A DNA stretch of 64,000 nucleotides from Dehalococcoidia bacterium. Lineage in GTDB: Bacteria; Chloroflexota; Dehalococcoidia; Lucifugimonadales; UBA3495. The DNA lies in assembly GCA_965220605.1 (NCBI GenBank), contig CBDCQM010000005.1, positions 729,565 to 793,564 on the forward strand, given 5' to 3'. Below are positions 3,377-60,580 of this stretch, piece after piece. The first letter of the stretch is position 1. Each line of letters starts with the position of its first letter. The notes below the pieces were generated by a model. It had not been told where the DNA came from. It saw nothing but the letters and a program-made list of their open reading frames with translations, and ran no database searches. The position numbers were made by a program, and so were the translations under genes.

Positions 3377-3624
3377 ACGGCTGGGATGGTATCACCAGCC
3401 GTGGGATATGTCAATCCGATTTCCGTAATCGGCGACTCTCCAGTCCAACCCGGACGAGCCGGTCCGGCAACCTGACAATCCTCGACAGTCGCACCGGCCG
3501 GACTTCCGCGCAGCCCCTGCGATTGCAGAAACGCGAGCGGCCCCGGCGGGAAGCGTCGGGGCCGATGGTTCTTCTGATTCACGCTGGCACTGCCGGTTCT
3601 TGGGGTGCCCCGTTCCAGGCTCAA

Positions 3625-4173
3625 CTACCTGTTTCCGAAATCCTCGAGGTCGAGAGAATCAATGAAGTCGGTGAAGGCGGACATGCCCTCCAGTTCCTCC
3701 TCCTTGACCTCACCCCGTGGCTCGGCGGGCGCCGGTTCCACTTCTTCAGCCTGCCCTGCAGGGCGACCTTCCTTGTCCAGCTGAATGCCTGCCTTGTCCA
3801 GCACCGACTCGTTGGCGAATATGGGCACTTTTGCCCGCACCGCCAACGCGACGGCGTCGCTGGGCCGGCAGTCTATGTCCTCGCTTTGTCCGTTTACGTC
3901 AATGGTGATGGTGGCGAAGAAGGTATCGTTCTGCAGGTCATTCACCAGTATGTGGCGGATGGACCCGCCAAGCTTGTCGATGACTTCCCGGAGAAGGTCG
4001 TGGGTCAGAGGGCGGGGAACACTCAGGTCCTGGAGCTTCACCGCGATCGCGTCCGCCTCTGCGGGGCCAATCCAGATGGGAAGGTAGCGGTCGGAGTCAT
4101 TCTCCCTGAGAATGACCACCCTCTGGTAATTCATCGGACTCACGCGGATGCTGTCAACAGTCATCTGTTTCAT
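3625..4173 (-). CDS. Bifunctional nuclease family protein (DUF151/BFN)
   Basis: MKQMTVDSIRV...RVVILRE...YLPIWIGPAEADAIA...PRPLTHDLL is a DUF151 signature. GGAGG lies 9 nt before the ATG at 4173. The track ORF extends to 4245. Confidence 0.75.
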   Translation of the reverse strand: MKQMTVDSIRVSPMNYQRVVILRENDSDRYLPIWIGPAEADAIAVKLQDLSVPRPLTHDLLREVIDKLGGSIRHILVNDLQNDTFFATITIDVNGQSEDIDCRPSDAVALAVRAKVPIFANESVLDKAGIQLDKEGRPAGQAEEVEPAPAEPRGEVKEEELEGMSAFTDFIDSLDLEDFGNR

Positions 4174-4263
4174 TACCGTCGCCTCCGAATAAGTCCAAGT
4201 CCAAGATGGGAGAAAATTGTATTCCGGTGCCAAATTCCATGTCAACCCGAACCGACGCCGCGG

Positions 4264-4426
4264 CAGAGCTATCGCATATGAATTGCAACCCCGTCACTCC
4301 GGCGAAAGCCGGAGTCCAGAATGTGCGGGATGCCGGATTTTTGGATGCTAACTGCCTGGTTCGGCCACTGGATTCCGGCTTTCGCCGGAATGACGGACAT
4401 TACCCCGCTCCTATGCGATTGCCCTG
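4264..4426. mobile_element. MITE, B-ended family (CAGRGCWATCGCAT ends, twin hairpin core)
   Basis: cagagctatcgcatatg...gtcactccggcgaaagccggagtccag...ctggattccggctttcgccggaatgac...tatgcgattgccctg. Flanked by a short direct repeat, (g)ccgcgg. Confidence 0.7.
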
Positions 4427-4624
4427 CCGCGGCGGCAGGGCCGCCGGGGCTGTCCTGAGCCCTCCACCGGGGCAAGGAGGAGGGGCAACAGTGATACCGT
4501 TGCCCCTTGATGGCGTTGGCCTTTGGGTTGTTCCGGCGGATGTGGCGCTGCGGGAACTGCCGGATTTGCCGGCTCTGCGCCAAGGTCCTCCCCTTTTGCA
4601 GAGGGGCACGAGCGTCCCGGCTTC

Positions 4625-5071
4625 CTAGTGCACAGGCTCCGGCTCGCTGAAGTACTGCGAGGTCAGAGTGGCCGTGGCCGGACCTGAAAGCACGTCGATT
4701 CCGCGGCGCACTGCAGCAGTGACGTTGGTGAGTTCCTGCTCCAGAGTCCGCAGGCTGCGGAGCGCATAGGCGTCAGCCTCGGACCGGCTGCTGTTGGCCT
4801 GGTTCTCGGCCTGCTCCACCATTCTCCGGGAGCGGTCTTCGGCGTCGCGAAGGATGTTCATGGCCCGCTGTTCCGCCTGGAGCAGCAAGTCGTGCTTGTC
4901 CAGCCGCTCCCGGTAGTCTTCCTCGGCCTGGGCCTTGGTGCGGCGGGCGTCGGTCTGGGCCAGGCTGATGATGTGGTCCTTCTGCGCCAGCACTTCTTCG
5001 GCCGCCCGTATTTCCTTGGGCACGGACAGTCGAAGCTGGTCGACCAGTTCCATGGCCTTGGTCCGGTCCAC
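4625..5071 (-). CDS. Coiled-coil protein of unknown function; the true start may lie upstream at a non-canonical codon
   Basis: 148-aa charged heptad-rich ORF from GTG at 5071. The frame stays open upstream to 5169 and encodes (I)DIINVIDKLETLIDTSKAARAGGHILV after GGGAGAGGGGG. Confidence 0.5.
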   Translation of the reverse strand: MDRTKAMELVDQLRLSVPKEIRAAEEVLAQKDHIISLAQTDARRTKAQAEEDYRERLDKHDLLLQAEQRAMNILRDAEDRSRRMVEQAENQANSSRSEADAYALRSLRTLEQELTNVTAAVRRGIDVLSGPATATLTSQYFSEPEPVH

Positions 5072-5173: not shown

Positions 5174-5665
5174 CTACCCTTCGACCGGATTTCCAAATTT
5201 CGAATACAGCGCTTCCGCCACATTGGGAGGAACCATCTCCCTGATGTCTCCGCCTAGCCTGGCAACCTCCTTCAAAAGACTGGCGCTCACAAAGACAAAG
5301 TCCTGTGAGGTCATAAAGCAGACCAGGTCCACTTCGGGCTCCAGTTTGCTGTTCATGAAGGCCATCTCGAATTCGTACTCAAAGTCGTAACCGCTGCGCA
5401 GGCCCCGGACGATTACCCCCGCGCCTATCTCTCTCGCGAAGCGGACCGTCAGTCCCGAGTACTTGACCACTCTCACGTTCGACAGATGCGAACTTGCGTC
5501 TTCAAACAGCGCGACCCTCTCATCGGTGTCGAACAGCAGACTCTTCGATGGAGTGTCGTAAACTGCAACGACAACCTCGTCGAACAGCCGCGAAGCTCGC
5601 GCCGCGATGTCCAGGTGCCCCACGGTGACCGGGTCGAAGCTACCCGGGTAGAGTGCAGTCACCAT
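5174..5665 (-). CDS. coaD: Phosphopantetheine adenylyltransferase
   Basis: MVTALYPGSFDPVTVGHLDI... is the canonical CoaD N-terminus (T/HxGH motif). 163 aa. Confidence 0.9.
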   Translation of the reverse strand: MVTALYPGSFDPVTVGHLDIAARASRLFDEVVVAVYDTPSKSLLFDTDERVALFEDASSHLSNVRVVKYSGLTVRFAREIGAGVIVRGLRSGYDFEYEFEMAFMNSKLEPEVDLVCFMTSQDFVFVSASLLKEVARLGGDIREMVPPNVAEALYSKFGNPVEG

Positions 5666-7581: not shown

Positions 7582-8883
7582 TTGCTGGACCCCGAAACTC
7601 TGAACACCATCGTGAACCGGGGCGTGAGCGACATCATCTCCCGCGAAGAGTTCACGCGGCTCCTCCAACTGGGCCGCCCTTTGCGCCTCAAGATGGGATT
7701 CGACCCCAGTCGGCCCGATATCCACCTCGGTCACGTAGTCGGCCTCCGCAAACTGCGCCAGTTGCAGGACCTTGGCCACCAGGTGATCCTCATCGTCGGA
7801 GACTGGACTGCCCAGATCGGCGACCCCAGCGGGCAATCGGCCACCCGCCCCATGCTCACCCACGAGCAGGTGATGGAGAACGCCCAGTCTTACCTCAGGC
7901 AGTTCTTCAAGGTGGTGGACGAGGACCGCACCCAGGTGGTCCAGCAAAGCGAATGGTTCGGAAAGTTCACCCTGGCCGACGTCATCGGCCTGACCGGCCG
8001 CTTTACCGTGGCCCAGTTCCTGCAGCGTGCCGACTTCGCCCAGCGCTACGCCGAGCAGAGGCCCATTGCCATCACCGAACTGCTCTACCCGCTGCTCCAG
8101 GCCTACGATTCCGTAGTCATCGAATCGGACGTGGAATTCGGCGGCACGGACCAGATGTTCAACCTGCTCGTCGGGCGCGAGCTACAGGGAATGATGGGCC
8201 AGACTCCGCAGCAGTGCTTCATGATGCCCATTCTCGTCGGCACCGACGGTGTCCAGAAGATGAGCAAGAGCTTGGACAACTATGTCGCCGTGGACGAGCC
8301 TCCCGAGGACATGTATGGCAAGATAATGTCCATCGACGACACCCAGATTGCCCGGTACTTCGAGCTGCTGACCGACCTGCCGTCGGCTGCACTCTCAGAC
8401 CTGGAGCGCGACCTGGAACAGGACTCGGTCAACCCAATGGATCACAAGAAGCGGCTGGCGTGGGACATCACTCGCCAGTTCCACGACTCGGCTGCGGCTG
8501 ACGCTGCCCAGGCCCGCTTCGAGCGCGTGGTGCAGGGACGCAGCCTGCCTGACGAGATGCCGGAGATTTCGATAAAGCAGTTGAAGGAACGGCTACCTCA
8601 GCCTGATGATAATGCTGGTGTGAGCAGCAACCTCACCTTAATGGCGACTAGAGACGGAGGCAGTGTAGATACTTTTGGCGCCCGGTGTGACCTACTGCTA
8701 GTGGCTACTGGCATGGCTGCTAGCAATGCTGAGGCTAGACGGTTAATTTCTCAGGGTGCGGTCGAGCTAATACGTCAATCTGGGGAGATCGAACGTTGGA
8801 GTGATCCCCGGGCTAATGTAAATGTGAGCATCGGTGATGCGTTACGCGCGGGCCGCCGCCGATTCGTCCGAATTGTCGAGTAG
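7582..8883 (+). CDS. tyrS: Tyrosyl-tRNA synthetase
   Basis: HIGH-type motif (PDIHLGH), KMSKS motif and a C-terminal S4-like domain (EARRLISQGAV). TTG start. Confidence 0.9.
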   Translation: MLDPETLNTIVNRGVSDIISREEFTRLLQLGRPLRLKMGFDPSRPDIHLGHVVGLRKLRQLQDLGHQVILIVGDWTAQIGDPSGQSATRPMLTHEQVMENAQSYLRQFFKVVDEDRTQVVQQSEWFGKFTLADVIGLTGRFTVAQFLQRADFAQRYAEQRPIAITELLYPLLQAYDSVVIESDVEFGGTDQMFNLLVGRELQGMMGQTPQQCFMMPILVGTDGVQKMSKSLDNYVAVDEPPEDMYGKIMSIDDTQIARYFELLTDLPSAALSDLERDLEQDSVNPMDHKKRLAWDITRQFHDSAAADAAQARFERVVQGRSLPDEMPEISIKQLKERLPQPDDNAGVSSNLTLMATRDGGSVDTFGARCDLLLVATGMAASNAEARRLISQGAVELIRQSGEIERWSDPRANVNVSIGDALRAGRRRFVRIVE

Positions 8884-9353: not shown

Positions 9354-9761
9354 TTAGCAGTCGGAATCCCCGTTGCCGTTCTGCCGTCGAAGCCCGTCGT
9401 TCTCTGCCCTCAGCTCTTCGATGGTCTGCTGGAGATTTCGTATGAGTTCGCTCTGGCCGTTGCCCTGATTTCTGTCGCTGCTCAGGGCGGCGACCATCAG
9501 GGCCATCAGTTCATGGTGGCGGCGCTCCGTTGCCTCAGCATCCTGACGGCGGCGCTCTTCATCCTGTCGGCGTTCCTCACGGCGGCGCTCTTCATCTTGA
9601 CGGCGTTCCTCACGACGACGCTCCTCCTGCCGCTCTTCCGCCTGTCGGCGCGCTCTGAGGTCGAAGTAACCGGACAGCATTTGCGGCACTCCCACGACGG
9701 CGAGCATAATTGCGATATATGCTCCCGCCTGCAGGTATTGCAGGGTAGACCATTCTTCCAT
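9354..9761 (-). CDS. Small single-TM coiled-coil protein (copy 2, longer E/R repeat tract)
   Basis: MEEWSTLQYLQAGAYIAIMLAVVGVPQML... Start chosen by homology to copy 1; the track ORF extends to 9827. Confidence 0.6.
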   Translation of the reverse strand: MEEWSTLQYLQAGAYIAIMLAVVGVPQMLSGYFDLRARRQAEERQEERRREERRQDEERRREERRQDEERRRQDAEATERRHHELMALMVAALSSDRNQGNGQSELIRNLQQTIEELRAENDGLRRQNGNGDSDC

Positions 9762-13949: not shown

Positions 13950-14049
13950 CTATCTCAAAACAGGTGAGTTGCTTTCTCGGCGTTTTCTCTGCACTAGCTT
14001 TTCACCCCCACCCTAGCCCTCCCCCTCAAGGGGGAGGGGACTTTTGAGA
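13950..14049. repeat. REP/MITE-like element family B long form, its right end interrupted by the IS
   Basis: ctatctcaaaacagg...ttcacccccaccctagccctccccctcaagggggaggggacttttgaga, then the IS. The remainder gatag follows the IS at 14911-14915. Confidence 0.6.
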
Positions 14050-14909
14050 GCCTGTTGACGATCTTTGGAATATGTTAGGTTGAGGCATTACCAAGGCAGA
14101 GCGATCATGTCTCATTCCTATCCCAGCGACATCAGCCGGGAGCAATTTGCCCGGATTCTTCCCTTTTTGGAATCGGCCCGCCGTCGGACCAAGCCCCGCA
14201 CCGTGGATCTGTACGACGTTTTCTGCGGGGTGCTCTACCTTCTGAAGAGCGGGTGTCAGTGGCGGATGCTCCCTGCGGACTTTCCCGACTGGCGTACCTG
14301 CTACAAGTATTTCCGCCAATGGAGTGAGCGTCCCGGCCCGGAGAAAGAGTCAATTCTGGAGCAGGTCTTAAAAAAAATTGGTTGGCGCGGCCCGACAAAA
14401 CAATGGTCGGACAGAGCAGACCAGCTTCTGCATCGTGGACACCCAGAGCGTAAGGAACACCGACAGTGCCGGGAGCAAGGGCTATGACCCGGGCAAGAAG
14501 GTGTCCGGGGTCAAGCGCCATATCGCTGTGGACACGCAAGGATTGCCCCATGCGATTGATGTGACCACCGCCGATGTTACCGACCGGGCTGGGGCATTAG
14601 CGATGTTTTCCCGGAGCCGGGCCACGCTGAACCAGGTGCAGAAGGTGTTGGTCGACGGGGGTTACAGCGGAGAGCCTTTTGCTGCGGCGGTGCAGAACCT
14701 GTTGGGAGCTTCGGTGGAGGTAGTGAAACGCAAGGAACTGCATACCTTCGTGGTGCTGCCGAAACGATGGGTGGTGGAACGGTCTTTCGGTTGGCTGGAT
14801 AAGTGCCGCCGCCTCTGGAAGAACTGCGAGAGAGAGCTCAATACCAGTCTGCAAATGGTGGTTCTAGCCTTCGCGGTGCTAATCCTGAAGAGATCGTCAA
14901 CAGGCTCTC
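14046..14909 (+). mobile_element. IS5-family insertion sequence (IS427/IS1031-like size, about 0.86 kb)
   Basis: Perfect 19-20 bp terminal inverted repeats: gagagcctgttgacgatct (14046-14064) and agatcgtcaacaggctctc (14891-14909). Two-frame transposase. The exact ends are ambiguous by 1-4 nt because of gaga repeats at the junctions. Confidence 0.85.
14107..14487 (+). CDS. IS5-family transposase, upstream frame (orfA)
   Basis: MSHSYPSDISREQFARILPFLE...YLLKSGCQWRMLP is the N-terminal domain of IS5/IS4-type transposases. The A8 run at 14370-14377 is the probable recoding site. Confidence 0.8.
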   Translation: MSHSYPSDISREQFARILPFLESARRRTKPRTVDLYDVFCGVLYLLKSGCQWRMLPADFPDWRTCYKYFRQWSERPGPEKESILEQVLKKIGWRGPTKQWSDRADQLLHRGHPERKEHRQCREQGL

Positions 14910-15223
14910 AGATAGTCGCTCATACCTGTTACTCCCAAACCCGGGCGGCCAGGGAGATCGCCCCCAGGGCTGCGGGAAAGCCCGCGTACCCTCCCGTCTG
15001 CATCAGCACTTCCACCATCTCCTCCTTGGAGAATCCCACGCGAGGGCCGGCTTGCAGGAAGTTGCGGAGTTGGGACTCAGCCCTGAGGGCTGTCAGCGCG
15101 GCGGTAGAGCAGACCACCCGCGACTTCAGATCGAGACCTGGCCGGAAGAAGATTTCTCCGAATGCAAACTGGAAGGTCAGAAGCCGCATATCCGGCGCCA
15201 GATCATCGACGCCGCCGATATAG
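14372..15223 (+). CDS. IS5-family transposase, downstream frame (orfB, DDE domain); the frame has no stop inside the IS
   Basis: ...CIVDTQSVRNTDSAGSKGYDPGKKVSGVKRHIAVDTQGLP...VLVDGGYSG...RWVVERSFGWL. The frame is +1 relative to orfA. Only the part up to about 14905 is IS-encoded; the rest reads through into flanking DNA. Confidence 0.75.
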   Translation, partial: KKLVGAARQNNGRTEQTSFCIVDTQSVRNTDSAGSKGYDPGKKVSGVKRHIAVDTQGLPHAIDVTTADVTDRAGALAMFSRSRATLNQVQKVLVDGGYSGEPFAAAVQNLLGASVEVVKRKELHTFVVLPKRWVVERSFGWLDKCRRLWKNCERELNTSLQMVVLAFAVLILKRSSTGSQIVAHTCYSQTRAAREIAPRAAGKPAYPPVCISTSTISSLENPTRGPACRKLRSWDSALRAVSAAVEQTTRDFRSRPGRKKISPNANWKVRSRISGARSSTPPI

Positions 15224-18007: not shown

Positions 18008-18187
18008 GGCCGCGTCGTCAAATTGAGTTGCCGGACACGCGACGGTCCTTTTCCCGTCATTCCGGCGAAAGCCGGAATCCAGACGCGCTCTATACCGCAG
18101 AATGATTTGCCTGCGGAAAACCCTGGATTCCTCCTGAGCTCGCCGATGGGTTTCGCCGGAATGACGGGTTAATTTGACGATACACAC
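18007..18187. mobile_element. MITE, A-ended family (degenerate copy), abutting the mce stop codon
   Basis: gtcgtcaaattgag...gtcattccggcgaaagccggaatccag...(damaged second hairpin)...gaatgacgggttaatttgacgat. TA is present at both flanks (18005-06 and 18188-89). Confidence 0.7.
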
Positions 18188-18271
18188 TAGGTCGCGAAAG
18201 CGGGAATCAGGATAAGAGTCAGGCAGTTACCGATTTCACCCTCACTCTTGAAGGGGGAGGAAATTCTGAAA

Positions 18272-18325: not shown

Positions 18326-18679
18326 TGGTGGAGACGGGGGAGAGTCGAACTCCCCGTCCAGAAGAACCTATAAGCCGGATGTGCTACAAGCTTGTCCGCC
18401 GGTTTGATCTTGGACTCTTCAGGCACCGCCGACGCAACCTGGAGAGACCCAGCCGGTGAATCTTTGGCCGCCCTTACCGGCGTCGGATTGGCCGCATCCC
18501 GGACTTATGGCGCCTGACTCCCCTCCTCCGGGAATAGCTGGGAGCAGACGTAGCCGCGTTTAGGCGGCTAGAGCGAATTCACGTTCGCCAGTTACTTTGC
18601 GCCACCTGTTTAACGAGGTTTGATGGCACCTCGGCTTGCAATCCGTTACAGAACGCCCCTGTCGAACCCGCGCGTCCCC
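18326..18679 (-). ncRNA. ssrA: tmRNA (SsrA), predicted tag GEREFALAA
   Basis: 5' end GGGGACGCGCGGGTTCGACAGGGG. 3' tRNA-like end GGACGGGGAGTTCGACTCTCCCCCGTCTCCACCA. Internal reading frame GGC GAA CGT GAA TTC GCT CTA GCC GCC TAA at 18589-18560. Confidence 0.9.
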
Positions 18680-18743: not shown

Positions 18744-18819
18744 TGGCGACCCGGATGGGATTCGAACCCACGATCTCTGGCGTGACAGGCCAGTATGTTA
18801 ACCGCTACACCACCGGGCC
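18744..18819 (-). tRNA. tRNA-Asp (GTC), CCA encoded
   Basis: GGCCCGGTGGTGTAGCGGTTAACATACTGGCCTGTCACGCCAGAGATCGTGGGTTCGAATCCCATCCGGGTCGCCA. A 7-bp acceptor stem, anticodon loop CTGTCAC and a T-loop GGTTCGAATCC. Confidence 0.9.
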
Positions 18820-20057: not shown

Positions 20058-20160
20058 TTTTCACCCCCACCCTAACCCTCCCCTTCAAGGGGGAGGGGAT
20101 ATGCAATACTGCCAGAGCGAGGACGGAAATCCAGAGACCTCTCCCTTCAAGAGGGAGGGA
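20058..20160. repeat. Two consecutive family B REP-like hairpins
   Basis: ttcacccccaccctaaccctccccttcaagggggaggggatatgcaatac ... ctctcccttcaagagggagggaatatgccacac. Confidence 0.6.
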
Positions 20161-22216: not shown

Positions 22217-22314
22217 CCTAAAATCAGTAGCAGCTTTCTTTTCTGTTTTCCCGTGCATCAGATTCACCCCCACCCCAACCCTCCCCCTCAAGGGGGAGGG
22301 AGCTTTTGAGATAG
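22217..22314. repeat. REP/MITE-like element family B long form
   Basis: cctaaaatcagtagcagctttc...ttcacccccaccccaaccctccccctcaagggggagggagcttttgagatag. Confidence 0.6.
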
Positions 22315-22320
22315 TTACTA

Positions 22321-22484
22321 GGGGGTGTCGTCAAATTAACTCGTCATTCCGGCGAAAGCCGGAATCCAGGGGTTTCCGCAGGCAAATCATTTTGCGGCGT
22401 AGAGCGAGCCTGGATTCCGGCTTTCGCCGGAATGACGGGAAAAGGACCGTCGCGTGTCCGGTAACCCAATTTGACGACACTCCC
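22321..22484. mobile_element. MITE, A-ended family, intact 164-bp copy flanked by TA
   Basis: TA|gggggtgtcgtcaaatta...gtcattccggcgaaagccggaatccag...ctggattccggctttcgccggaatgac...aatttgacgacactccc|TA. Confidence 0.8.
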
Positions 22485-22536
22485 TAAGGGGACTATACCC
22501 TCCACCTCAAGGGAGAGGGGACTAAGGGGACTGTTT

Positions 22537-28357: not shown

Positions 28358-29707
28358 TCAGATGATGCCCAGCCGGTAGAGTTGGACCACCTCTTCGGGG
28401 GTGTAGCCCAGCTCTCCGGCGTAGATCTCGCTGTTGTGCTGGCCCATCGTCGGCGCGGGACGGGGATGCGATCCTTCGACAGGCTCAGGATGAGCGGCAG
28501 GAGCAAGCTCAGGGTTAGCGGCAAGAGCGGGATCGGGATTGGCGGCAGGGGCCGACAGCGCATAGGGTGGGCCGGGAAGGGCGACCGGGCCAGTATCGGG
28601 CCGCTCGACCTCCACGAACAGGGACGCCAGGCTGGGGTCGTGGCGCACCTCGTCGAAACCCCTCACCGGAGCCAGGGGAATACGGTGCTCCAGCGCCATC
28701 CCCAGCAGTTCCGCTTTGGTGTGCTGTAGCAGCCACTCCTCGACGTACCCGTCCACCTCGTCGGCGTACTCGTTGTTCATCACGGTGCGGTTGCGAAAGC
28801 GCGGCTCCTGGGACCACCCGGGCGTGCCCATCAGTTCCAGCAGTCTGCGCCACTGGCGGCCTTCCGGGGAGCCAACAAAGATGTATCCATCCTTGCAACG
28901 CAGTATGCAGTTGGGGTAGGGAAAGTCCAGCGCATGGTGCCCGGTGCGGCGCGTCACTCGCCACTGGTAGACCGCCATCAGGGCCTCGGGGCCGTTGTAC
29001 AGCCCAGCCATGGACTCGATCTCGGCGATGTCGATGTGCTGACCGGGGCTGGCAGCGGAGATTTCTCCCTCATTCCAACTCTCTCCCGCCGGGAGAGAGG
29101 GCGGATTGTCGCGGGCCAGCAGGGCCATAACGATGGCCGACGCGGCGGCGGCTCCGGCGAAGTAGCCAGCTTCGGGCGTGCCGAAGGTCAGCGGCTCGCG
29201 GTCGGGGCTGCCGAGGCCCTCGCAGATTCCCCCGCCTGCCGCCAGGTTGATGTCGTAGGCTTTCCAATCGCGGTATGGGCCGGTCAGGCCGAACGGCGTG
29301 ATTGAGGCCATCACGAGACCGTTGTTGTGTTCTCGCAGAGAATCGTACTCGAGCCCGACCCGGTCCATCTCGGTTGGGTGCAGGTTATGCACCAGCACGT
29401 CGGCGCGGGAGACCATGCCTGCCAGTATCTCGCGCCCGGTGGGCGTATCGAGGTTGAGGGTGACGCCCCTCTTGTCGGCGTTCAGGTACAGGAACAGGCC
29501 GCCCCGCTCCCGGTGATGCGACCGTTCATGGTGAGCCTGTCGAACCACCGGCCAGGGGCCGTAGTCCCGGGCCCAGTCGCCAACCCCGGAACGCTCGATC
29601 TTCACCACATCGGCGCCCATGTCGGCCAGGAGCTTGCCACAGTAGGGGGCGGAGATGAACTCCCCGAACTCAAGGACTCGCAGGCCGTTAAGAAGGCCGT
29701 AGGTCAT
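28358..29707 (-). CDS. CaiB/BaiF family III CoA-transferase (paralog 4) with in-frame low-complexity insertions
   Basis: MTYGLLNGLRVLEFGEFISAPYCGKLLADMGADVVKIE... from ATG 29707. The track ORF extends to 29983 but that part is non-homologous and Arg/His-rich. Confidence 0.8.
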   Translation of the reverse strand: MTYGLLNGLRVLEFGEFISAPYCGKLLADMGADVVKIERSGVGDWARDYGPWPVVRQAHHERSHHRERGGLFLYLNADKRGVTLNLDTPTGREILAGMVSRADVLVHNLHPTEMDRVGLEYDSLREHNNGLVMASITPFGLTGPYRDWKAYDINLAAGGGICEGLGSPDREPLTFGTPEAGYFAGAAAASAIVMALLARDNPPSLPAGESWNEGEISAASPGQHIDIAEIESMAGLYNGPEALMAVYQWRVTRRTGHHALDFPYPNCILRCKDGYIFVGSPEGRQWRRLLELMGTPGWSQEPRFRNRTVMNNEYADEVDGYVEEWLLQHTKAELLGMALEHRIPLAPVRGFDEVRHDPSLASLFVEVERPDTGPVALPGPPYALSAPAANPDPALAANPELAPAAHPEPVEGSHPRPAPTMGQHNSEIYAGELGYTPEEVVQLYRLGII

Positions 29708-41557: not shown

Positions 41558-41818
41558 CTAGTCATCATCGCCGGAGTCCGGCGCAGTTCCGCGCAACTCA
41601 AACAGGCGGTCTATGCGCGAGACGATATGGGCAGTATCGGCGCGGCGAGCTTCCGACTCCGCACGGCGAGCTTCCGATTCCGCCCGCTGGGATTCCGCCA
41701 GAGCGTCAAGCCGGCCTTCCAATCGGCCCATCCTGTACCACAAGCCGCCCGCCATTCCCATCAGGGCCAGCAGGATCGCGCCCACGGCAGCTATCAGCCT
41801 CACATCGTCGGGAGACAC
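41558..41818 (-). CDS. Small single-TM protein (copy 2, one extra AESEARR heptad)
   Basis: Nearly identical at DNA level to 41285-41524, with a 21-nt insertion duplicating AESEARR. Confidence 0.55.
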   Translation of the reverse strand: MSPDDVRLIAAVGAILLALMGMAGGLWYRMGRLEGRLDALAESQRAESEARRAESEARRADTAHIVSRIDRLFELRGTAPDSGDDD

Positions 41819-53420: not shown

Positions 53421-53873
53421 CGTCCTCGTCGTCTCCTCAATCGCCGACGGAAAGCTGCAAGAGCCGTACCGCTCAAGTCGTAAGCCGTTATGACGAATGC
53501 GTCGCCTGTTCCCGGGCCTGGCACGTAGATAACCCGAAGATACCTGTCGGCAGCGGTTTGTCCTATGACTATTCGTGAGTCATTTCGTCCGGGTCTATCT
53601 TCGGCAGCTTCTTCTAGGGAGTGTCGTCAAATTGAGCAACCAGACACACCACAGCCTTATTTCCGTCATTCCGACGAAAGCCGGAATCCAGAAAATCCGG
53701 CTGCCGCATGACGGTTTGGCTACGGAAACCTCTGGATTCCGGCTTTCGCCGGAATGACGGGTTAATTTGACGACACCCCCTAAGGCTTCAATCGCTTCTG
53801 ATTCTTCGACCCCGTGACGGAAAATATGCGGCAGTCCCGTCTCGGGGTCGATGTAAAAGCGTATACCCGACAT
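53417..53873 (-). pseudogene. Toxin-like gene (BrnT/DUF497- or DUF4258-like) split by a MITE
   Basis: The 5' part 53873-53781 encodes MSGIRFYIDPETGLPHIFRHGVEESEAIEAL. The 3' part 53614-53417 encodes EEAAEDRPGRNDSRIVIGQTAADRYLRVIYVPGPGTGDAFVITAYDLSGTALAAFRRRLRRRRGR*. Deleting 53617-53780 plus one TA joins them in frame (96 aa). Confidence 0.6.
53617..53780. mobile_element. MITE, A-ended family, intact 164-bp copy flanked by TA, inside the toxin-like gene
   Basis: TA|gggagtgtcgtcaaattgag...gtcattccgacgaaagccggaatccag...ctggattccggctttcgccggaatgac...aatttgacgacaccccc|TA. Confidence 0.85.
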
Positions 53874-54570: not shown

Positions 54571-55362
54571 ATGGTCAGGTTAGGCGGCACGGCAACAATC
54601 GCCCACCTCGAGGTGTTCCAGGGTCTGGAGAAGCTGTTCCGTCGGCGTGGCATCGAAATGGACTGGGTGCTGTACTCCGACTACGACGTCATGGTGGACG
54701 CATTCGTCGCGGGCGACATCGACCTGGCCTGGAACGGACCTCTGGGCTACGTCAAGATCAAGCGGCTCCTCGATGAGCCGTGCCAGGTCATCGCCATGCG
54801 CGACGTGGACATCGGTTTCACCACCCATTTCATAGCCCGGACCGGCTCCGGGATTGAAACGGTGGAGGACCTGAAGGGACGCCGGTTCGCCTTCGGCCGG
54901 CGAGCGTCGGAACAGGCGGGGCTGGTCCCTTACTACCTGTTGAAGCAGGTCGGCATCAACCCAGGCAGCGATCTCGCCGTAGCCAGCTTTTTCGAGCAGC
55001 GGCAGTCGGCGACCCGTTCGGACGAGCGCGACGTGGTCGAACGCGTGGCCTCCGGCGAGTTTGATGCCGGGTCGGTCAGCCAGCGGACAATGGAAACGAT
55101 GGCCGAAGACGGCAGCCTGCCGCGGGACAACGTGCGCATTTTCTATTCCAGTCCCCCGTACAGCCACTGCTGTTTCACGGCGCAGCGAAACCTGGAGCCG
55201 TCCCTCGCCCGTGAAATCGAAGAGGCTTTCCTCTCGGTGACCGGCAACGACGAAGTTGAGGAGGCGGTGCTGAAGGGCGAGGCCTGCAGCAGCTTCGTGC
55301 CGGGCATAGACACAGGGTGGGAACTGATCGAAGCTGCGGCAGTGAGCGAGGGGCTGGTCTAG
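54571..55362 (+). CDS. PhnD/SsuA-like type 2 periplasmic-binding-fold protein without a recognisable signal peptide
   Basis: ...DIDLAWNGPLGYV..., ...VEDLKGRRFAFG...SEQAGLVPYYLL... resemble phosphonate-binding PhnD. No hydrophobic N-terminus and no adjacent ABC genes. Confidence 0.6.
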   Translation: MVRLGGTATIAHLEVFQGLEKLFRRRGIEMDWVLYSDYDVMVDAFVAGDIDLAWNGPLGYVKIKRLLDEPCQVIAMRDVDIGFTTHFIARTGSGIETVEDLKGRRFAFGRRASEQAGLVPYYLLKQVGINPGSDLAVASFFEQRQSATRSDERDVVERVASGEFDAGSVSQRTMETMAEDGSLPRDNVRIFYSSPPYSHCCFTAQRNLEPSLAREIEEAFLSVTGNDEVEEAVLKGEACSSFVPGIDTGWELIEAAAVSEGLV

Positions 55363-56309
55363 GTCTCGCTGTCGCCGCTGGAGGCATTGCGCAGGATGTC
55401 TTCCAGCATGTTGTCCAGCGCGGGGTCGAGTTCCACGGCCGGTTCGAAAGGCGTGTAGTTGAAATCGGTGCGCGCGCGGTCGATCAGTTCCTTCGCCGTC
55501 GGGTTGGTGCTGCCGATCTTCTCCAACGTGTCCCGCAATTCCTGGGATTCGGCTTCGCCCAGCGACCGAAGTTCCGACAAGTCGAAGTCCAGGCTGAAGA
55601 TCGAATTGATTCGCCGCATGATGTCGTAGAACGAGCGGTGATCCCGGCTAATGCCCACGGGATCATTGTTGGAGGTCAGGAACGGATACATAGGCGCCAT
55701 GGCCCCAAGGCGGAACATCTCCACTTCCGGGTGCTGGAAGTGCGCGACGGTGATGAGGGCCATGCCTATCGTCGGCCCATTCCTGCTATTGGAACCGTAG
55801 TTTGAAAACCGCACGCCCAGCTTGTCCATCTCGGGCTTCATGCTGGCCTGGCTGTAGATGCAGCTGACGCTCCGCTCCATATCGGGCGGCGCGGCCCCGT
55901 TGTAGCCTTCGACGGCAACGGTCTGGGAGACTCCCAGCTGCTTGACAGCCTGGAAGAACGCGTCGGCGTACACATCCAGCCGGAACCACGGCTCCTCGCC
56001 GAGAAAGATGACCAGACCGTTTCCGGCGTCGAAGAAATTGTTTTCGCGCCGCATGTTGGTGTCGGGCAGCCCTTCCCGGTAGGCCACCCGCGGCCGGTAG
56101 GTATCATGGGTGCCCGGGACCTGGAACGGATAACAGAGTTTGGCGATTTCGGGCCCCATTGATCCAATACGACGGGCCTGGAGCTTCTCGATCAGGTAAC
56201 GAGGCAGGCCGCTGGAGATCTCGCCTCCGTCGGACCACTGGCGACGCCAGCCGGCAATCAGATAACGGGCGTCGGGGATGGACTGCAAGTCCAGCAGTTC
56301 GTCAGCCAT
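55359..56309 (-). CDS. PAC2 (proteasome assembly chaperone 2-like) family protein
   Basis: 316 aa from ATG 56309 (AAGGAG upstream). MADELLDLQSIPDARYLIAGWRRQWSDGGEISSG... The family call is from memory. The track ORF extends into the MITE. Confidence 0.6.
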   Translation of the reverse strand: MADELLDLQSIPDARYLIAGWRRQWSDGGEISSGLPRYLIEKLQARRIGSMGPEIAKLCYPFQVPGTHDTYRPRVAYREGLPDTNMRRENNFFDAGNGLVIFLGEEPWFRLDVYADAFFQAVKQLGVSQTVAVEGYNGAAPPDMERSVSCIYSQASMKPEMDKLGVRFSNYGSNSRNGPTIGMALITVAHFQHPEVEMFRLGAMAPMYPFLTSNNDPVGISRDHRSFYDIMRRINSIFSLDFDLSELRSLGEAESQELRDTLEKIGSTNPTAKELIDRARTDFNYTPFEPAVELDPALDNMLEDILRNASSGDSET

Positions 56310-56407
56310 CTGCCAACACTCCTTTAGCCAAACGGGCATCACCTGGAAAGAATCAGTAACTGTAATTCTGCCAGACGACCCGCTACAGCGCAAATCCGGT
56401 GAGAGCG

Positions 56408-56987
56408 CAGGGCTATCGTATATGGCCCATTTAAGCGCCGTCATTCCGGCGAAAGCCGGAATCCAGAAAACGCTAGGGAGTGTCGTCAAACTTGCACGTC
56501 ATTCCGGCAAAAGCCGGAATCCAGAAAACGCTAGGGAGTGTCGTCAAACTTGCACGTCATTCCGGCGAAAGCCGGAATCCAGAAAACGCTAGGGAGTGTC
56601 GTCAAACTTGCACGTCATTCCGGCGAAAGCCGGAATCCAGAAAACGCTAGGGAGTGTCGTCAAACTTGCACGTCATTCCGGCGAAAGCCGGAATCCAGAA
56701 AACGCTAGGGAGTGTCGTCAAACTTACACGTCATTCCGGCGAAAGCCGGAATCCAGAAAACGCTAGGGAGTGTCGTCAAACTTACACGTCATTCCGGCAA
56801 AAGCCGGAATCCAGAAAACGCTAGGGAGTGTCGTCAAACTTGCACGTCATTCCGGCGAAAGCCGGAATCCAGGGATTTCCGTAGCCAAACCGTCATGCGG
56901 CAGCCGGATTTTCTGGATTCCGGCTTTCGCCGGAATGACGGAAATAAGGCTGTGGCGCGTCTGGTTACTCAATTTGACGACACTCCC
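56408..56987. repeat. Composite MITE: B-type left end, 8 tandem 58-bp hairpin units, A-type right end
   Basis: Hairpin starts at 56440, 56498, 56556, 56614, 56672, 56730, 56788 and 56846 (period exactly 58 bp). The unit is gtcattccggcgaaagccggaatccagaaaacgctagggagtgtcgtcaaacttgcac, with only 2 variable positions. Ends with ...aatttgacgacactccc|TA. Confidence 0.85.
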
Positions 56988-57021
56988 TAGGCACAGAGAA
57001 CGCAGCCGGAGGGCAACATCT

Positions 57022-57048
57022 CTGGATTCCGGCTTTCGCCGGAATGAC
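57022..57048. repeat. Solo copy of the hairpin core
   Basis: ctggattccggctttcgccggaatgac. Confidence 0.6.
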
Positions 57049-57111
57049 CATATTGTTAACCAATCAATTCGCCTATCAGTAAAAGACCCTGTCCCTCAGC
57101 CCGGCATAATT

Positions 57112-57146
57112 CCCCAAATTAAAGGGGCGCCCGTTTGGGCGCCCCT
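57112..57146 (-). terminator. Rho-independent terminator of the collagen-like gene
   Basis: Minus strand reads AGGGGCGCCC-aaac-GGGCGCCCCT followed by TTTAATTT. Confidence 0.6.
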
Positions 57147-57171
57147 ATGGGTGTGCCAAGGGTGCGTGGGG

Positions 57172-57993
57172 TTAGCTGGACTGGCGGCCTGCTATGAATG
57201 CGCCGCCTGCGGCTACCACGCCGACGATGGCGATGATCAGGGCCACGATGGCGAGGGCTCCGCCCCCACCGTCCGCGCCCGCAGCGCCGGCGGGACCGGC
57301 AGGACCGGTAGCGCCGTCAGCGCCAGCGGGACCGGCAGGACCAGCGGGGCCGGCAGGACCGGCTGCGCCGTCGGAACCATCGGAGCCGTCGGAACCGTCA
57401 GCGCCAGCGGGACCGGCAGGACCGCGAGCGCCGTCAGCGCCGGGTGCGCCGTCATGACCGTCGTGGCCATCCTCGCCAGCGGGGCCGGCAGGACCGGGCT
57501 CGCCCTGAGGACCGGGCTCTCCCTGAAGTCCGCGGGGACCGCGCATGGCCTGCTGGTCCTGCTGCGGCGTCCGGGTCGGCGGCACCATGCCCGTGGAAGC
57601 GTCCAGGTTGACCATGGCGTCCATGCCGCCAACGGTCATGACTTCGGCGGGGTCGGACATGGCGTCGTACTTCATGGTCTCGCCGTCCATCATCATGGAC
57701 AGCGCGAAGGTGACCATCTTTTCGCCGGAGTCGGGGACGATGAGGGTGAAGGAGCCGTCGGCCATGACGTCGGCCATGCCGATCTCCATCATCATCATCT
57801 CGCCCTCTTCACCCTCCTCTTCGACCATGGCCACGACCATGGTGCCGTCGGGCGGGGTCTCGCCATCCAGCATGGCCATGCCTTGGATCAGGCTGGGGAT
57901 GCCTGGTGGCTGCTGCGCGAGGGCCACCGACAGCGGCAGGGCCGCGAGCAGGGCGATCACGCTGAGCAGGGCCAGGACTCTGGTTTTGGTCAT
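57172..57993 (-). CDS. Met-rich, collagen-like (G-X-Y)n protein with a signal peptide and a C-terminal TM anchor
   Basis: Signal [26 protein letters not shown]. Head domain with about 21 Met in about 120 aa ([22 protein letters not shown]). About 30 uninterrupted G-X-Y triplets ([25 protein letters not shown]...). Tail [28 protein letters not shown]. Confidence 0.8.
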
Positions 57994-58114
57994 TCCGTCC
58001 TCCTCATTTCATTCGCATTGGCGGGCGGAGAGTCCGCCCGCCCGGTCGGGATGGGGAAGCCGTCCCGGTTTGCGCCGGGGCGGCTTCCCGCCAGTTTCCA
58101 GGATTGTCCAGGCC

Positions 58115-60580
58115 CTACTGGACGGTGATCAGGCTCCAGCCTGCCAGGAGGTTCTGGCCTTGTACCTCGGCAGCTCCCTTCAGCTGGATCCAGATGATGT
58201 TTCCGCTCTCCAACGCCTCCAGGCTGTTGGCGGCCTCGAATCCGGGATCCGGATCGTAGAGGTACCACGACTGGTCGGTGTTGTCATAGAGGAAGATGCG
58301 GTCGAGCATATCAGCCTCGATCAGACCCGCGAACAGGTCCGCCGGGGCGCGGCTCACCGTCGCCGTAGCGATCTCCAGGAAGGTGGTGATGGTGGTCTGG
58401 CTCACCCGGACCGTAACGGTCTGGTTGCCGAGCTCGAGCTGGGGAACCAGGACGCTGGACGTAAAGTCGCCGTCTATCGAGGACGCGGGAGCCGGTACGG
58501 GCCGGACATCCACGCCGCCGATTTCCATCACTGCCACGGTGGCGAAGGCCGGGAAGTTCATGCCGCTGATGGTGATCATCTCACCGGACGACACGCTGTC
58601 CGTGCTCAGGCTCACCATGGCGCCCGGAGTCTCGTGGGTATCCTTGGCGGTTACGCTCGCGTAGACCCCAACCGAGGTGGCCTCTACATCGTGCGTTGAG
58701 CCGATCCTTGCGTAGCTGGGGACGACGAAGTCAATGCTGACCGCGCCGGAGGCGTCCGCGGAGCCGGCAGCAACGGTTACGAAGTTGTTGCCGTCTTCGT
58801 ACTTCACCTGCACCAGGTCGCCGGACGGGAAGCCGCTCCCGCTCACGTTAACGGTGGTGCCGCGGCGGCTGGTCTCCGGATCGACCGTGATGGTGGCCTT
58901 GGGGATCTCAATCGACCCTTCCGCCACGCGGCCGGACCCGGTAGCTGTGACCGAGATCGTCTTCTTGCCGGAGCCGATGCCGTCATCCTCATCGCTGGGA
59001 ACGTTAACGGCGATCACGACGTCGCCGGCGGAGTTGGCCGTGGCATTGACGTTTGCAGTCTGGTTTCCGATCTTGACGCTGCTGATGTTGTCGCCGGCAA
59101 CGAAGCCGCTGCCTTCGATGGTGATCTGCTGGCCGGGCACGACCATCGCCGGCTGGATGGTCAGCGAAAGAACGCCGACTGTCAGCGAGGCGGTGGCCGA
59201 CGGAGCGCTCATGTCGCCATCGCCGTCGGGGTCGGTGCCGGTTACCTTGACGGTCTGAGTCCCGCGGTTGGCGTCGGAGGGAATCATGACCTTGAACTCG
59301 GCAGCGCCGTCAGCGTTGGTGGAGACGGCTCCCGCGCTGGAGGTCACATCACTGGCCCCGACCGTAACCTTGGTGACCGAGTTGGATGCGGGCCAGTCGG
59401 AAAGGTTGATGGTCACTTCCTTGGACACGGGGGACTCTTCGGGAGACACCGTTGCCTTCGGGCTGACGGTGAACGACCCGGAGACGTCCTGGTCGTTGCC
59501 CGCTGCGTCCTGGGCAGTGATGGTGTTCGCCTGGTTGGCCTTGAAGGCCGACGAAGTGGTGTCGATCTCAAGGGTCCCGGTGTTGTCGGCGATTGTTACC
59601 TCGCCGTGCTTGGCGTCGTTCAGGTTGACCGTCGCCGATCCGTTGGCGAAGCCCTTGAAGGTGGCGGTGATCATCGTGCCGCGGGTGCCGCTGGTCTCGC
59701 TGAGGCTGATCACCCGATCGATGCTGGTATTCGCTTCCTTCTCGTCGCCGTCCGGGAAGTTCTCCTGCCATTCGACGGTCTTGGTGCCGCCGGAGGCCGC
59801 GTTCGTGACCCCGGCCGCCTGCTTGATCCTGATGGTGTAGGCGCCACTAACCGGGTTATTCTGCGGGTCTCCGTTAGCCCTTACATTCGGCACGGTCATG
59901 GTGACGTTGCTGCCGCTCACCACGACGTTGCTGGGGTTGCCTTTGTAGCTGCCGCTGGTAATGTCGATAGCGGAATCAGCGATGGTATCCGGCACACCGA
60001 AGGCCGACAGGTCCACCCTGATGTCCTCGTTGGGTTCGATGGCCGTTGCCGCGTTGGAGCTAATGGTTATCTGCACCGCAGCCCCGGGGGTCTGCGAGCT
60101 GAGCGCGATGGTCCCATCAACTCCGCCATTGCCGCCGGTGCTGGTCTCAGACACGGTTACCGTGTCGTCGCCCTCGATGGGTTGGGCGTCGCCCCCGGAC
60201 GCGAATGTGCCGCTGAAGGCTTCGGACTCGCCCGGTGTCATGGGAGCCGTAAGCGTGTAGCTAACGCTCGCCGACTGTCCAGCTGCAAGAATGAGGTATG
60301 ACACCCCGGTATTCCCCCGTTCCGTGAAATCCCCGGCAGAGGCCAAGGTGTAGCCCGAGGGATAGGTATCCTCAACTACCCCGCCTGCCGCGAAATTGGC
60401 CAGTTCGATGGTGACCGTTATTTCGCCCCCGGGCGCCACCGGGTTCGGGGTAATGCTCCTCATGGCGCTGTGATCATCCGCTTGTGCCACGGTGTAGACA
60501 CCCATCGCAAAGAGGGTGGCCAGCAACGTGGCTAGCAAGGCCAGGGCTATGCCTGTTTGCTTGCCGAGCTGTGCTTTCAT
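58115..60580 (-). CDS. 821-aa secreted surface protein with repeated Ig-like/IPT-TIG-like modules
   Basis: Signal/anchor IALALLATLLATLFAMGVYTVAQA. Recurrent units such as ITIEGSGFVAGDNISSVKIGNQTANV, VNVSGSGFPSGDLVQVKY and ITISGMNFPAFATVAVMEIGGVDV. ATG 60580 follows AAGGAGA. Confidence 0.7.
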   Translation of the reverse strand: MKAQLGKQTGIALALLATLLATLFAMGVYTVAQADDHSAMRSITPNPVAPGGEITVTIELANFAAGGVVEDTYPSGYTLASAGDFTERGNTGVSYLILAAGQSASVSYTLTAPMTPGESEAFSGTFASGGDAQPIEGDDTVTVSETSTGGNGGVDGTIALSSQTPGAAVQITISSNAATAIEPNEDIRVDLSAFGVPDTIADSAIDITSGSYKGNPSNVVVSGSNVTMTVPNVRANGDPQNNPVSGAYTIRIKQAAGVTNAASGGTKTVEWQENFPDGDEKEANTSIDRVISLSETSGTRGTMITATFKGFANGSATVNLNDAKHGEVTIADNTGTLEIDTTSSAFKANQANTITAQDAAGNDQDVSGSFTVSPKATVSPEESPVSKEVTINLSDWPASNSVTKVTVGASDVTSSAGAVSTNADGAAEFKVMIPSDANRGTQTVKVTGTDPDGDGDMSAPSATASLTVGVLSLTIQPAMVVPGQQITIEGSGFVAGDNISSVKIGNQTANVNATANSAGDVVIAVNVPSDEDDGIGSGKKTISVTATGSGRVAEGSIEIPKATITVDPETSRRGTTVNVSGSGFPSGDLVQVKYEDGNNFVTVAAGSADASGAVSIDFVVPSYARIGSTHDVEATSVGVYASVTAKDTHETPGAMVSLSTDSVSSGEMITISGMNFPAFATVAVMEIGGVDVRPVPAPASSIDGDFTSSVLVPQLELGNQTVTVRVSQTTITTFLEIATATVSRAPADLFAGLIEADMLDRIFLYDNTDQSWYLYDPDPGFEAANSLEALESGNIIWIQLKGAAEVQGQNLLAGWSLITVQ

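Follow-up and report, generated by a model that had tools for sequence, protein, structure and literature searches.

The DNA analysed here is a stretch of 64,000 nucleotides from a Dehalococcoidia bacterium (contig CBDCQM010000005.1, positions 729,565 to 793,564 of the forward strand), referred to below as the window. Between positions 56439 and 56872 it carries a tandem array in which a 28-nt hairpin, CGTCATTCCGGCRAAAGCCGGAATCCAG, is repeated eight times in the same orientation at an exact period of 58 bp. We consider it likely that this array is a minisatellite, variable between strains and made of a known mobile hairpin module, apparently a repetitive extragenic palindrome (REP) of the CGTC-1 class. 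It is most likely a by-product without dedicated function.

Structure of the array

Tandem Repeats Finder (TRF) returned the interval as one strong array (period 58, 7.5 copies, 98% matches, 0 indels, score 840). Copies of the 27-mer GTCATTCCGGCRAAAGCCGGAATCCAG begin at 56440, 56498, 56556, 56614, 56672, 56730, 56788 and 56846, all eight on the plus strand, and both results agree with a preliminary description of this DNA, which had placed eight hairpin starts at an exact 58-bp period. The 27-mer occurs 21 times in the window and not once in shuffled sequence. Each unit consists of the hairpin (27), AAAACGC (7), TA (2) and GGGAGTGTCGTCAAACTTGCAC (22), which together make 58 bp. The units vary at two sites only, namely the base that opens the loop, which is A in units 2 and 7, and the spacer position CTTG/CTTA, with A in units 5 and 6; the unit composition and both variable positions had been read correctly before. 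All eight stems had been described as capped by GNRA loops, and this held for six of them, the remaining two loops being AAAA. The seven spacers are 98% identical to each other. As single-stranded DNA, the array hairpin folds into an 8-bp stem at -9 kcal/mol.

The array is embedded in parts of two kinds of hairpin-bearing element that are also found elsewhere in the window, here called A-type and B-type. The features of the locus are as follows.

56408-56438, plus strand: outer arm of the host hairpin element, a B-type arm (CAGGGCTATCGTATATGG...) that gives the array its unique left flank; the B-type arms at 4264, 4426 (minus), 37711 and 37874 (minus) align with it
56439-56872, plus strand: tandem array of 7 units of 58 bp (28-nt hairpin CGTCATTCCGGCRAAAGCCGGAATCCAG + AAAACGC + TA + GGGAGTGTCGTCAAACTTRCA) and an eighth, terminal hairpin; seen by TRF, motif matches, the Ssn-related motif pattern and the single-stranded DNA fold
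56439+58n to 56466+58n (n = 0 to 7), plus strand: the array hairpins, exact or near-exact matches
56822-56989, plus strand: full-length 168-bp A-type element, TA-GGGAGTGTCGTCAAA ... TTTGACGACACTCCC-TA; it aligns over its full length with the copies at 22319-22486, 53615-53782 and 18017-18189, and has the terminal inverted repeat pairs I17-I23
56990-57021, plus strand: probable remainder of the host element centre, GGCACAGAGAACGCAGCCGGAGGGCAACATCT, unique in the window
57022-57048, minus strand: inverted hairpin copy (exact 27-mer), presumably the one with which the first array hairpin was originally paired in a head-to-head host dimer

The A-type element at 56822-56989 contains head-to-head hairpins at 56845-56872 (plus) and 56913-56940 (minus). 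Its short left arm is the array spacer, and the last array unit runs into the element. The homology limits of the array coincide exactly with the 28-nt hairpin, a unique B-type arm standing before the first CGTC and the A-type centre after the last CCAG. A B-type left end at 56408 (CAGGGCTATCGTATATG) and an A-type right half had been noticed previously, and the locus had been regarded as chimeric, joining the two element types and with amplification of one interval. The element alignments bear this out and show that the A-type element is complete. Taken together, AAAACGC, TA and 56990-57021 give a centre of 41 nt; the centres of the other hairpin dimers measure 40-48 nt. On the right side of the array locus no B-type arm matching that of the left flank was found, and the sequence beyond 57048 is not B-type. 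The hairpin at 57022-57048 has the 5' tag GGTC in place of CGTC, and the G before GTC causes it to be missed by the pattern described below.

Identity of the hairpin

CGTC-1 REPs were defined by an unpaired 5' CGTC (or TGTC) tag, a stem of 8 bp that starts with two A-T pairs, a tetranucleotide loop and a tail close to CCA, and the family includes Neisseria dRS3 (Di Nocera et al. 2013, PMC3733652). The array hairpin reads, from 5' to 3', CGTC, ATTCCGGC, GAAA, GCCGGAAT and CCAG. It has an unpaired CGTC tag, an 8-bp stem that opens with A-T and T-A, a loop of 4 nt and a CCA tail. Like the members of that family, it is present in many intergenic copies that are mainly head-to-head dimers. The 13 copies outside the array are located at 4293/4368, 18056, 22343/22410, 28224/28291, 37743/37818 and 53665/53732, and, inverted at the array locus itself, at 56913 and 57022. 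Members of the dispersed pairs point their tags outward and lie between open reading frames (ORFs); the partner of the copy at 18056 is interrupted by an insertion.

The sequence between the two hairpins varies from pair to pair, and the hairpin is the only part that A-type, B-type and other elements have in common. This identifies it as an independent module and not as an arm of a MITE (miniature transposable element with inverted repeats). The preliminary description had treated it as the arm of a local MITE family; it does occur in both A-type and B-type elements, but it is a module found across phyla.

Compared with the 28-nt Neisseria motif NTS, CGTCATTCCCGCGMAVGCGGGAATCYRG, the hairpin differs at 2 positions, which form one compensatory pair (C-G to G-C). 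A strict search for NTS, for which the authors of the motif tolerate one mismatch, gave 0 matches in the window. The degenerate pattern of the Ssn-related motif (SRM), HGTCWYN(0-2)YYVSBRHN(0-5)WNVSBRGN(0-2)RNCYNB, gave 17 matches, comprising 8/8 array hairpins and 9 others; in 100 windows simulated with a Markov-1 model the mean was 1.0 and the maximum 5. Over 61 distinct variants, compensatory changes were seen in six of the eight stem pairs, with 33 cells changed on both sides, a level that none of 500 shuffles reached. Among 123 exact copies, GTC is preceded by C in 106 and by T in 16. The hairpin thus has the layout of an SRM, a palindrome with conserved and oriented unpaired flanks. Judged from its sequence, it is a CGTC-1 REP of the dRS3/NTS-like kind, a cross-phylum module and, by pattern match, an Ssn recognition motif.

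SsnA is a single-domain GIY-YIG protein of ~95 amino acids that binds this kind of hairpin in single-stranded DNA and cuts the one strand a few nucleotides upstream (Chenal et al. 2025, PMC11893778). Ssn is inactive on double-stranded DNA and on RNA, and the ssnA genes are usually bracketed by the motif (NTS-ssnA-NTS), for which the authors raised the idea of mobile-element-like behaviour (Chenal et al. 2025, PMC11893778). In N. meningitidis the Ssn/NTS system reduces transformation by NTS-flanked DNA, and Neisseria NTS clusters flank surface genes (Chenal et al. 2025, PMC11893778). No ssn homologue (cd10448-type GIY-YIG) was found in the 64-kb window. If the genome encodes a cognate Ssn, it is predictable that the plus strand of the array, when single-stranded, would offer it eight evenly spaced sites.

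Strain comparison and origin of the array

The preliminary description had proposed unit-number polymorphism as a test, and a difference of this kind was met in a strain 98.7% identical to the window. Its contig L058 (Logan, SRR22586459) has the B-type arm, one hairpin and then the A-type centre GGATTTCCGTAG, with no 58-bp unit. In the window, GGATTTCCGTAG is the sequence that follows the last array hairpin. The layout of L058 is therefore that expected for a zero-unit allele arising by recombination between the first and the last hairpin. On this comparison the number of units appears to differ among close strains, being 0 in L058 and 7 in the window. The unit junction CCAGAAAACGCTAGGGAGTGTCGTCAAAC had 0 matches in the metagenome scan, so copy number could not be compared by that route. 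The hairpin of L058 (positions 13-39) has the tag CGCC instead of CGTC and one stem mismatch; by analogy with the published Ssn mutagenesis data, this tag should impair cleavage by Ssn.

Contigs assembled from short reads of the same species are 98.7-99.4% identical to the window, and two of them (L057 and L059) break at 56400. The 99.4%-identical contig L056 has the A-type element at 53615, and the syntenic loci of relatives are without that copy. In relatives with 88-92% identity in the PAC2 gene next to the array, synteny downstream is kept and the locus has no hairpins and no array.

These data are consistent with the following sequence of events. In this SAR202-type Chloroflexota genome, the hairpins normally occur as head-to-head pairs within short palindromic elements. 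An A-type element of 168 bp probably inserted at a TA in the centre of such a host pair (56439...57048), which would have placed two hairpins of the same orientation 58 bp apart. Replication slippage or unequal sister exchange may then have paired these 28-bp direct repeats out of register and duplicated the interval up to 7 units, and extrusion of the hairpins is a plausible aid to such pairing. The same misalignment could also delete the interval to zero units.

Several points weigh against this account. The one-unit ancestral allele was not recovered, and the nested insertion is read from the layout of the sequence; the TA flanks are either a duplication or part of the inverted repeat, and the two are indistinguishable. 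The unit number of the window rests on assembly, and the zero-unit allele is known from one k=31 Logan contig, which stops 12 nt beyond the hairpin. As the 64-kb window has no ssn gene, a link to an active Ssn here would be by analogy, and the data do not separate plain slippage from nuclease-stimulated rearrangement.

Head-to-tail arrays and ssn-like genes in other genomes

Among the loci fetched from outside the window (numbered with the prefix L), seven hold regular head-to-tail arrays of the 27-mer, each with a private spacer. Periods range from 41 to 72 bp, the number of hairpins from 3 to 8 and the spacer identity within an array from 0.88 to 1.0.

L001: period 69 bp, 8 hairpins, spacer identity 0.89
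L004: period 67 bp, at least 4 hairpins, spacer identity 1.0
L005: period 46 bp, 5 hairpins, spacer identity 0.89
L006: period 67 bp, 6 hairpins, spacer identity 0.88
L010: period 53 bp, 6 hairpins, spacer identity 0.96
L053: period 72 bp, 3 hairpins, spacer identity 1.0
L054: period 41-43 bp, 6 hairpins, spacer identity 1.0

Irregular clusters of the hairpin were found at L014, L018 and L055. The spacers are wholly different from array to array. The array of L004 terminates inside a hairpin and in other arrays the homology extends past the hairpin, which speaks more for generic misalignment than for cuts at one fixed position. Di Nocera et al. (2013, PMC3733652) described head-to-tail dimers of CGTC repeats as negligible and their clusters as rare except in Neisseria and Wolbachia. 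No tandem arrays are mentioned in the Ssn paper, from which the word 'tandem' is absent (Chenal et al. 2025, PMC11893778). The homogeneous head-to-tail layout is thus recurrent, yet it is not highlighted in the literature searched.

Head-to-tail pairs of the exact 27-mer were also scanned for in one genome per species. This gave 23 loci, all in metagenome-assembled genomes (MAGs) with a G+C content of 0.50-0.74. The host groups are Chloroflexota/Dehalococcoidia, Ignavibacteria, Omnitrophota, Elusimicrobiota, Planctomycetota, Desulfobacterota, and Alpha- and Gammaproteobacteria, that is, about seven phyla. The exact 27-mer was present as a single copy in each of 23 IMG/VR viral contigs (L024-L046; G+C 0.38-0.64), some of which encode lambda-type portal, gpA terminase or Mu Gp36 proteins. 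It is possible that such viral contigs represent vehicles for spread between phyla. The fetched stretches of these contigs contain no ssn-like gene. In the Dehalococcoidia MAG OY762063.1 (L003, L019), the exact Neisseria-type core ATTCCCGCGCAGGCGGGAATC occurs seven times beside the window-type hairpin, and two subtypes can therefore share one genome.

When the ORFs of the fetched loci were clustered all against all, three homologous GIY-YIG genes of ~95 codons, tightly flanked by the hairpin, emerged unprompted; the other clusters at hairpin loci were just response regulators and phage structural genes. Further ssn-like genes were found via homologues.

L001 (Ignavibacteria), 5179-5574: ssn-like GIY-YIG gene bracketed by the hairpin
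L021 (Elusimicrobiota), 7623-8000: ssn-like GIY-YIG gene bracketed by the hairpin, with a head-to-tail cluster abutting
L055, 636-1124: ssn-like GIY-YIG gene bracketed by the hairpin, with a head-to-tail cluster abutting
L069/L071 (L069, 2950-3320): ssn-like gene with the exact stem of the window at 17 nt ahead of its ATG and at 2 nt past its stop; found via homologues
L060, 2900-3600: ssn-like gene followed downstream by tandemly reiterated hairpin dimers; found via homologues

In the ssn-like proteins, the spacing of Tyr7, Tyr18 and Glu65 equals that of the catalytic Y6, Y17 and E64 of SsnA. For these proteins no NCBIfam model and no solved structure were found.

An alternative is that amplification is driven by a nuclease. 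An Ssn-type (or other hairpin-specific) enzyme would nick upstream of same-strand hairpins on the lagging-strand template, and template switching or re-insertion of unit-length single strands would follow. The known activity of Ssn, a cut in single-stranded DNA a few nucleotides upstream of an oriented hairpin, and the mobile-element idea for NTS-ssnA-NTS (PMC11893778) suit this model, as do the clusters that abut ssn-like genes in L021 and L055, the reiterated dimers after the ssn gene in L060, the occurrence of regular private-spacer arrays in several phyla and the coincidence of the limits of the window array with the 28-nt motif. However, homology between two inserted copies would give such motif-limited boundaries just as well, and the end of the L004 array and the homology past the hairpin in other arrays fit a fixed cut less well. 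Ssn is known only as a nuclease, strand transfer or ligation not having been reported (PMC11893778), and its gene is missing from the 64-kb window. We regard nuclease-driven amplification as unlikely.

A wider form of the same idea is that private-spacer arrays of Ssn hairpins are a general, enzyme-dependent product of the Ssn/SRM system. Nicking on the lagging strand would cause rapid gain and loss of units, and the arrays would act as strand-specific barriers of single-stranded DNA, cut at many sites, along the edges of variable surface-protein regions, both in free-living Chloroflexota and in other phyla. This proposal is speculative and, in our estimate, quite unlikely. If it were true, the Neisseria NTS/transformation story would extend far past host-associated Proteobacteria and the multiplication of the repeats would be explained. 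If the arrays depend on Ssn at all, they would offer a handle on how these repeats spread, and natural substrates that Ssn should cut to unit-length single strands.

Flanking genes and other alternatives

The array lies in a gap of 862 bp between the start of the PAC2 gene (56309) and the end of the collagen-like gene (57172), both of which are on the minus strand; the gap had been put at 860 bp, with the same PAC2 start and a terminator downstream of the collagen-like gene. The flanking features are as follows.

55359-56309, minus strand: PAC2-family gene, downstream of the array (Pfam PF09754, E=3e-12)
56365-56393, minus strand: PAC2 promoter-like motif, TTGCGC-17 nt-CAGAAT, read from the sequence and with a putative promoter role
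57123-57146, minus strand: stem-loop resembling a terminator, downstream of the collagen-like gene, with ten pairs, nine of them G-C, and then TTAATTTGGG
57172-57993, minus strand: gene for a collagen-like surface protein, 3' end towards the array (Pfam Collagen PF01391, E=2.9e-14)

PAC2 homologues at 88-92% identity belong to SAR202-type Chloroflexota. Those matches that carry a name are SAR202, and together with the tmRNA tag GEREFALAA they mark the organism as SAR202-type. The PAC2 promoter-like motif lies outside the repeat, 14 nt from the left arm of the array, and the layout TTGCGN-17-CAGAAT upstream of PAC2 is kept in the relatives L047-L051, all of which are without the array. The region upstream of PAC2 (56310-57171) is a synteny break with respect to these relatives (their positions ~3400-5000). 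At the break they carry a thiamine pyrophosphate (TPP) enzyme, or a tRNA with a phage-type integrase and IS21 after it, or DDE transposases; the window carries the array and surface-protein genes, and no tRNA. Next to the array stands a group of genes for surface proteins (collagen-like, TIG, fn3/cadherin). In the Dehalococcoidia MAG OZ253548.1 (L004, 3-7333 and 7735-7962), distant homologues (29% identity) of the TIG-domain surface protein of the window and collagen-like repeats adjoin the array of 67-bp period. By analogy, the position of the array next to surface-protein genes echoes the Neisseria NTS clusters, a likeness seen in two cases only (the window and L004).

PAC2 homologues of more than 316 amino acids (P0004, P0077) were considered as upstream extensions into the repeats and rejected, being products of C-terminal frameshifts. 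Exact-protein look-ups of the PAC2 protein, the collagen-like protein and a phosphonate-binding protein returned no record; those of an aminotransferase and a glyoxalase did return records. The repeats generate spurious ORFs, for example at 56278-58128 (plus) and 55359-56489 (minus), with peptides such as VIPAKAGIQKTLGSVVKL... and ...WIPAFAGMT...; they include a plus-strand ORF of 452 amino acids and a false N-terminal extension of PAC2 by 60 amino acids, either of which would lead gene callers astray.

This setting bears on the possibility that the array is a selected cis-acting element, namely an insulator or upstream element of PAC2, an RNA scaffold, or a strand-specific single-stranded DNA 'fence' that limits recombination at the border of a variable surface-protein region. 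The array does stand between a terminator-like stem and a conserved promoter-like motif, at a synteny break beside surface genes (collagen-like, TIG, fn3/cadherin), and the second Dehalococcoidia array (L004) adjoins distant homologues of them; in Neisseria, NTS clusters flank surface genes and reduce transformation (PMC11893778). Nevertheless, units are absent from a close strain and hairpins from the locus in relatives, and yet the PAC2 promoter-like motif is the same in all of them. A role as transcriptional insulator, one of the functions suggested earlier, accordingly finds no support, as the motif is equally conserved with and without the array. The structured plus-strand RNA suggested earlier is also unlikely: both flanking genes are on the minus strand, no plus-strand gene reads into the array, no sigma-70-like site was found in 55300-58200, and two of the loops are AAAA. 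At gathering and permissive thresholds, Rfam gave just tmRNA, tRNA and sub-threshold hairpin-shaped chance matches. Folding of the region as RNA, recommended previously, was dominated by long-range pairing between inverted copies and said nothing specific on function. Ssn, moreover, is inactive on RNA and double-stranded DNA (PMC11893778), the spacers of different arrays are unrelated, and adjacency to surface genes amounts to two cases. A cis-acting function is, on balance, improbable.

Another reading is that one or two hairpin copies were mis-assembled, by expansion or collapse. The unit number of the window comes from the assembly, and conspecific short-read contigs stop at 56400 and at 12 nt beyond the first hairpin. 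Against this, assemblers usually collapse tandem repeats and do not expand them, the units carry two ordered variant positions, and arrays of a similar kind are present in complete MAG chromosomes from long reads, for example OY762444.1 and OZ253548.1. We therefore hold an assembly artefact to be highly improbable. A degenerate or orphan CRISPR array (short palindromic repeats, clustered and spaced at regular intervals), suggested by the 28-nt partly palindromic repeat and the regular 30-nt spacing, can be dismissed as had been done before, since the seven spacers are one sequence (98% identity) derived from the terminal arm of a repeat element, the repeat is dispersed through the window as inverted pairs, and no Cas family was found among the 46 window ORFs scanned against Pfam.

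A strain-variable minisatellite of a mobile hairpin thus remains our preferred reading. For annotation, such arrays are a source of false CRISPR calls and of spurious ORFs (VIPAKAGIQ..., WIPAFAGMT...), and recognition of the SRM/CGTC-1 REP resolves both. To what is known of Ssn/NTS, the present analysis adds a SAR202-type Chloroflexota host with a dense and apparently recent expansion of the motif, an identical 27-mer common to MAGs of about seven phyla, and a recurrent head-to-tail array architecture that is in neither of the papers describing the family (PMC3733652, PMC11893778).

Other features of the window

A second hairpin repeat family, CCCTCCCCCTCAAGGGGGAGGG, is unrelated to the array hairpin and occurs at 14017-14038, 20076-20097, 22279-22300 and 22498-22519. 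Its copies flank an insertion sequence (IS) at 14045 and the A-type element at 22319, and the family is absent from 59 fetched loci. The IS (14045-14910) is of the IS5 family, with perfect 20-bp terminal inverted repeats TGAGAGCCTGTTGACGATCT and an ORF with a DUF4096 N-terminus. An A8 run in it suggests a programmed frameshift, and it is apparently inserted in a sequence that is found uninterrupted at about 22305. It was considered as mobiliser of the A-type element and dropped, its ends being just loosely similar to A-type ends.

A tmRNA with the unusual tag peptide GEREFALAA adjoins a tRNA-Asp (18326-18679 and 18744-18819), and the diverged A-type hairpin element at 18017-18189 is directly beside the tmRNA. 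TRF also reported short tandem repeats of in-frame length at 9541-9626, 28483-28549 and 41643-41697 (periods 33, 24 and 21 bp, respectively).

Comparison with known systems

The A-type element is a candidate MITE, with terminal inverted repeats of 17-19 bp, four copies and presence or absence among relatives, its TA flanks being ambiguous; no cognate transposase was identified. A REPIN-RAYT system combines inverted REP doublets with a RAYT (Y1 HUH) gene flanked by REPs, and inverted doublets are present in the window. The Neisseria form has been linked to Group 2 RAYT (Bertels & Rainey). A tblastn search with E. coli RayT gave nothing convincing in the window or in 51 loci, and a weak match in L046 turned out to be a phage portal protein.

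In BIME-2, REP pairs are reiterated in tandem with alternating orientation. Enterobacterial BIME-2 and the GTAG REP clusters of Pseudomonas resemble the present case in that a REP and a flanking piece are tandemly reiterated with a copy number that varies between strains. They belong, however, to another REP superfamily (GTAG, associated with RAYT), and the window array, with all its hairpins on the plus strand, does not alternate. With CRISPR the window array shares the repeat length and regular spacing, but its spacers are identical, its repeat is dispersed in inverted pairs and no cas genes were found.

In the NIME arrays of Neisseria, too, the number of repeats changes from strain to strain (Bentley et al. 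2007, PMC1797815). Unlike the window array, which reiterates one spacer at 98% identity, NIMEs interleave many RS families (PMC1797815). The dRS3 consensus ATTCCC-N8-GGGAAT is not matched by the stem of the window, ATTCCG...CGGAAT, and the array is not a NIME on this account.

Among the closest relatives are the CGTC-1 REPs (PMC3733652), with which the hairpin shares the tag, the stem and loop lengths, the A-T first two stem pairs and the CCA tail; the other copies in the window are likewise mainly head-to-head dimers, some of them embedded in longer palindromes. One difference is the host, as CGTC repeats had not previously been reported in Chloroflexi. With NTS/SRM the likeness comprises the 28-nt oriented hairpin, the CGTC 5' tag, the 8-bp stem and the C after the palindrome. 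It comprises also the dense, dispersed and intergenic occurrence of the array's hairpin, the bracketing of ~95-amino-acid GIY-YIG genes in other genomes and the clusters near surface-protein genes. The comparison is one of sequence, and in it the array's hairpin is 2 mismatches away from strict NTS and has no ssn gene beside it in the window. Its SAR202-type Chloroflexota host is unmentioned in the main text of PMC11893778, and head-to-tail arrays with a constant spacer, such as the one at 56439-56872, are undescribed there.

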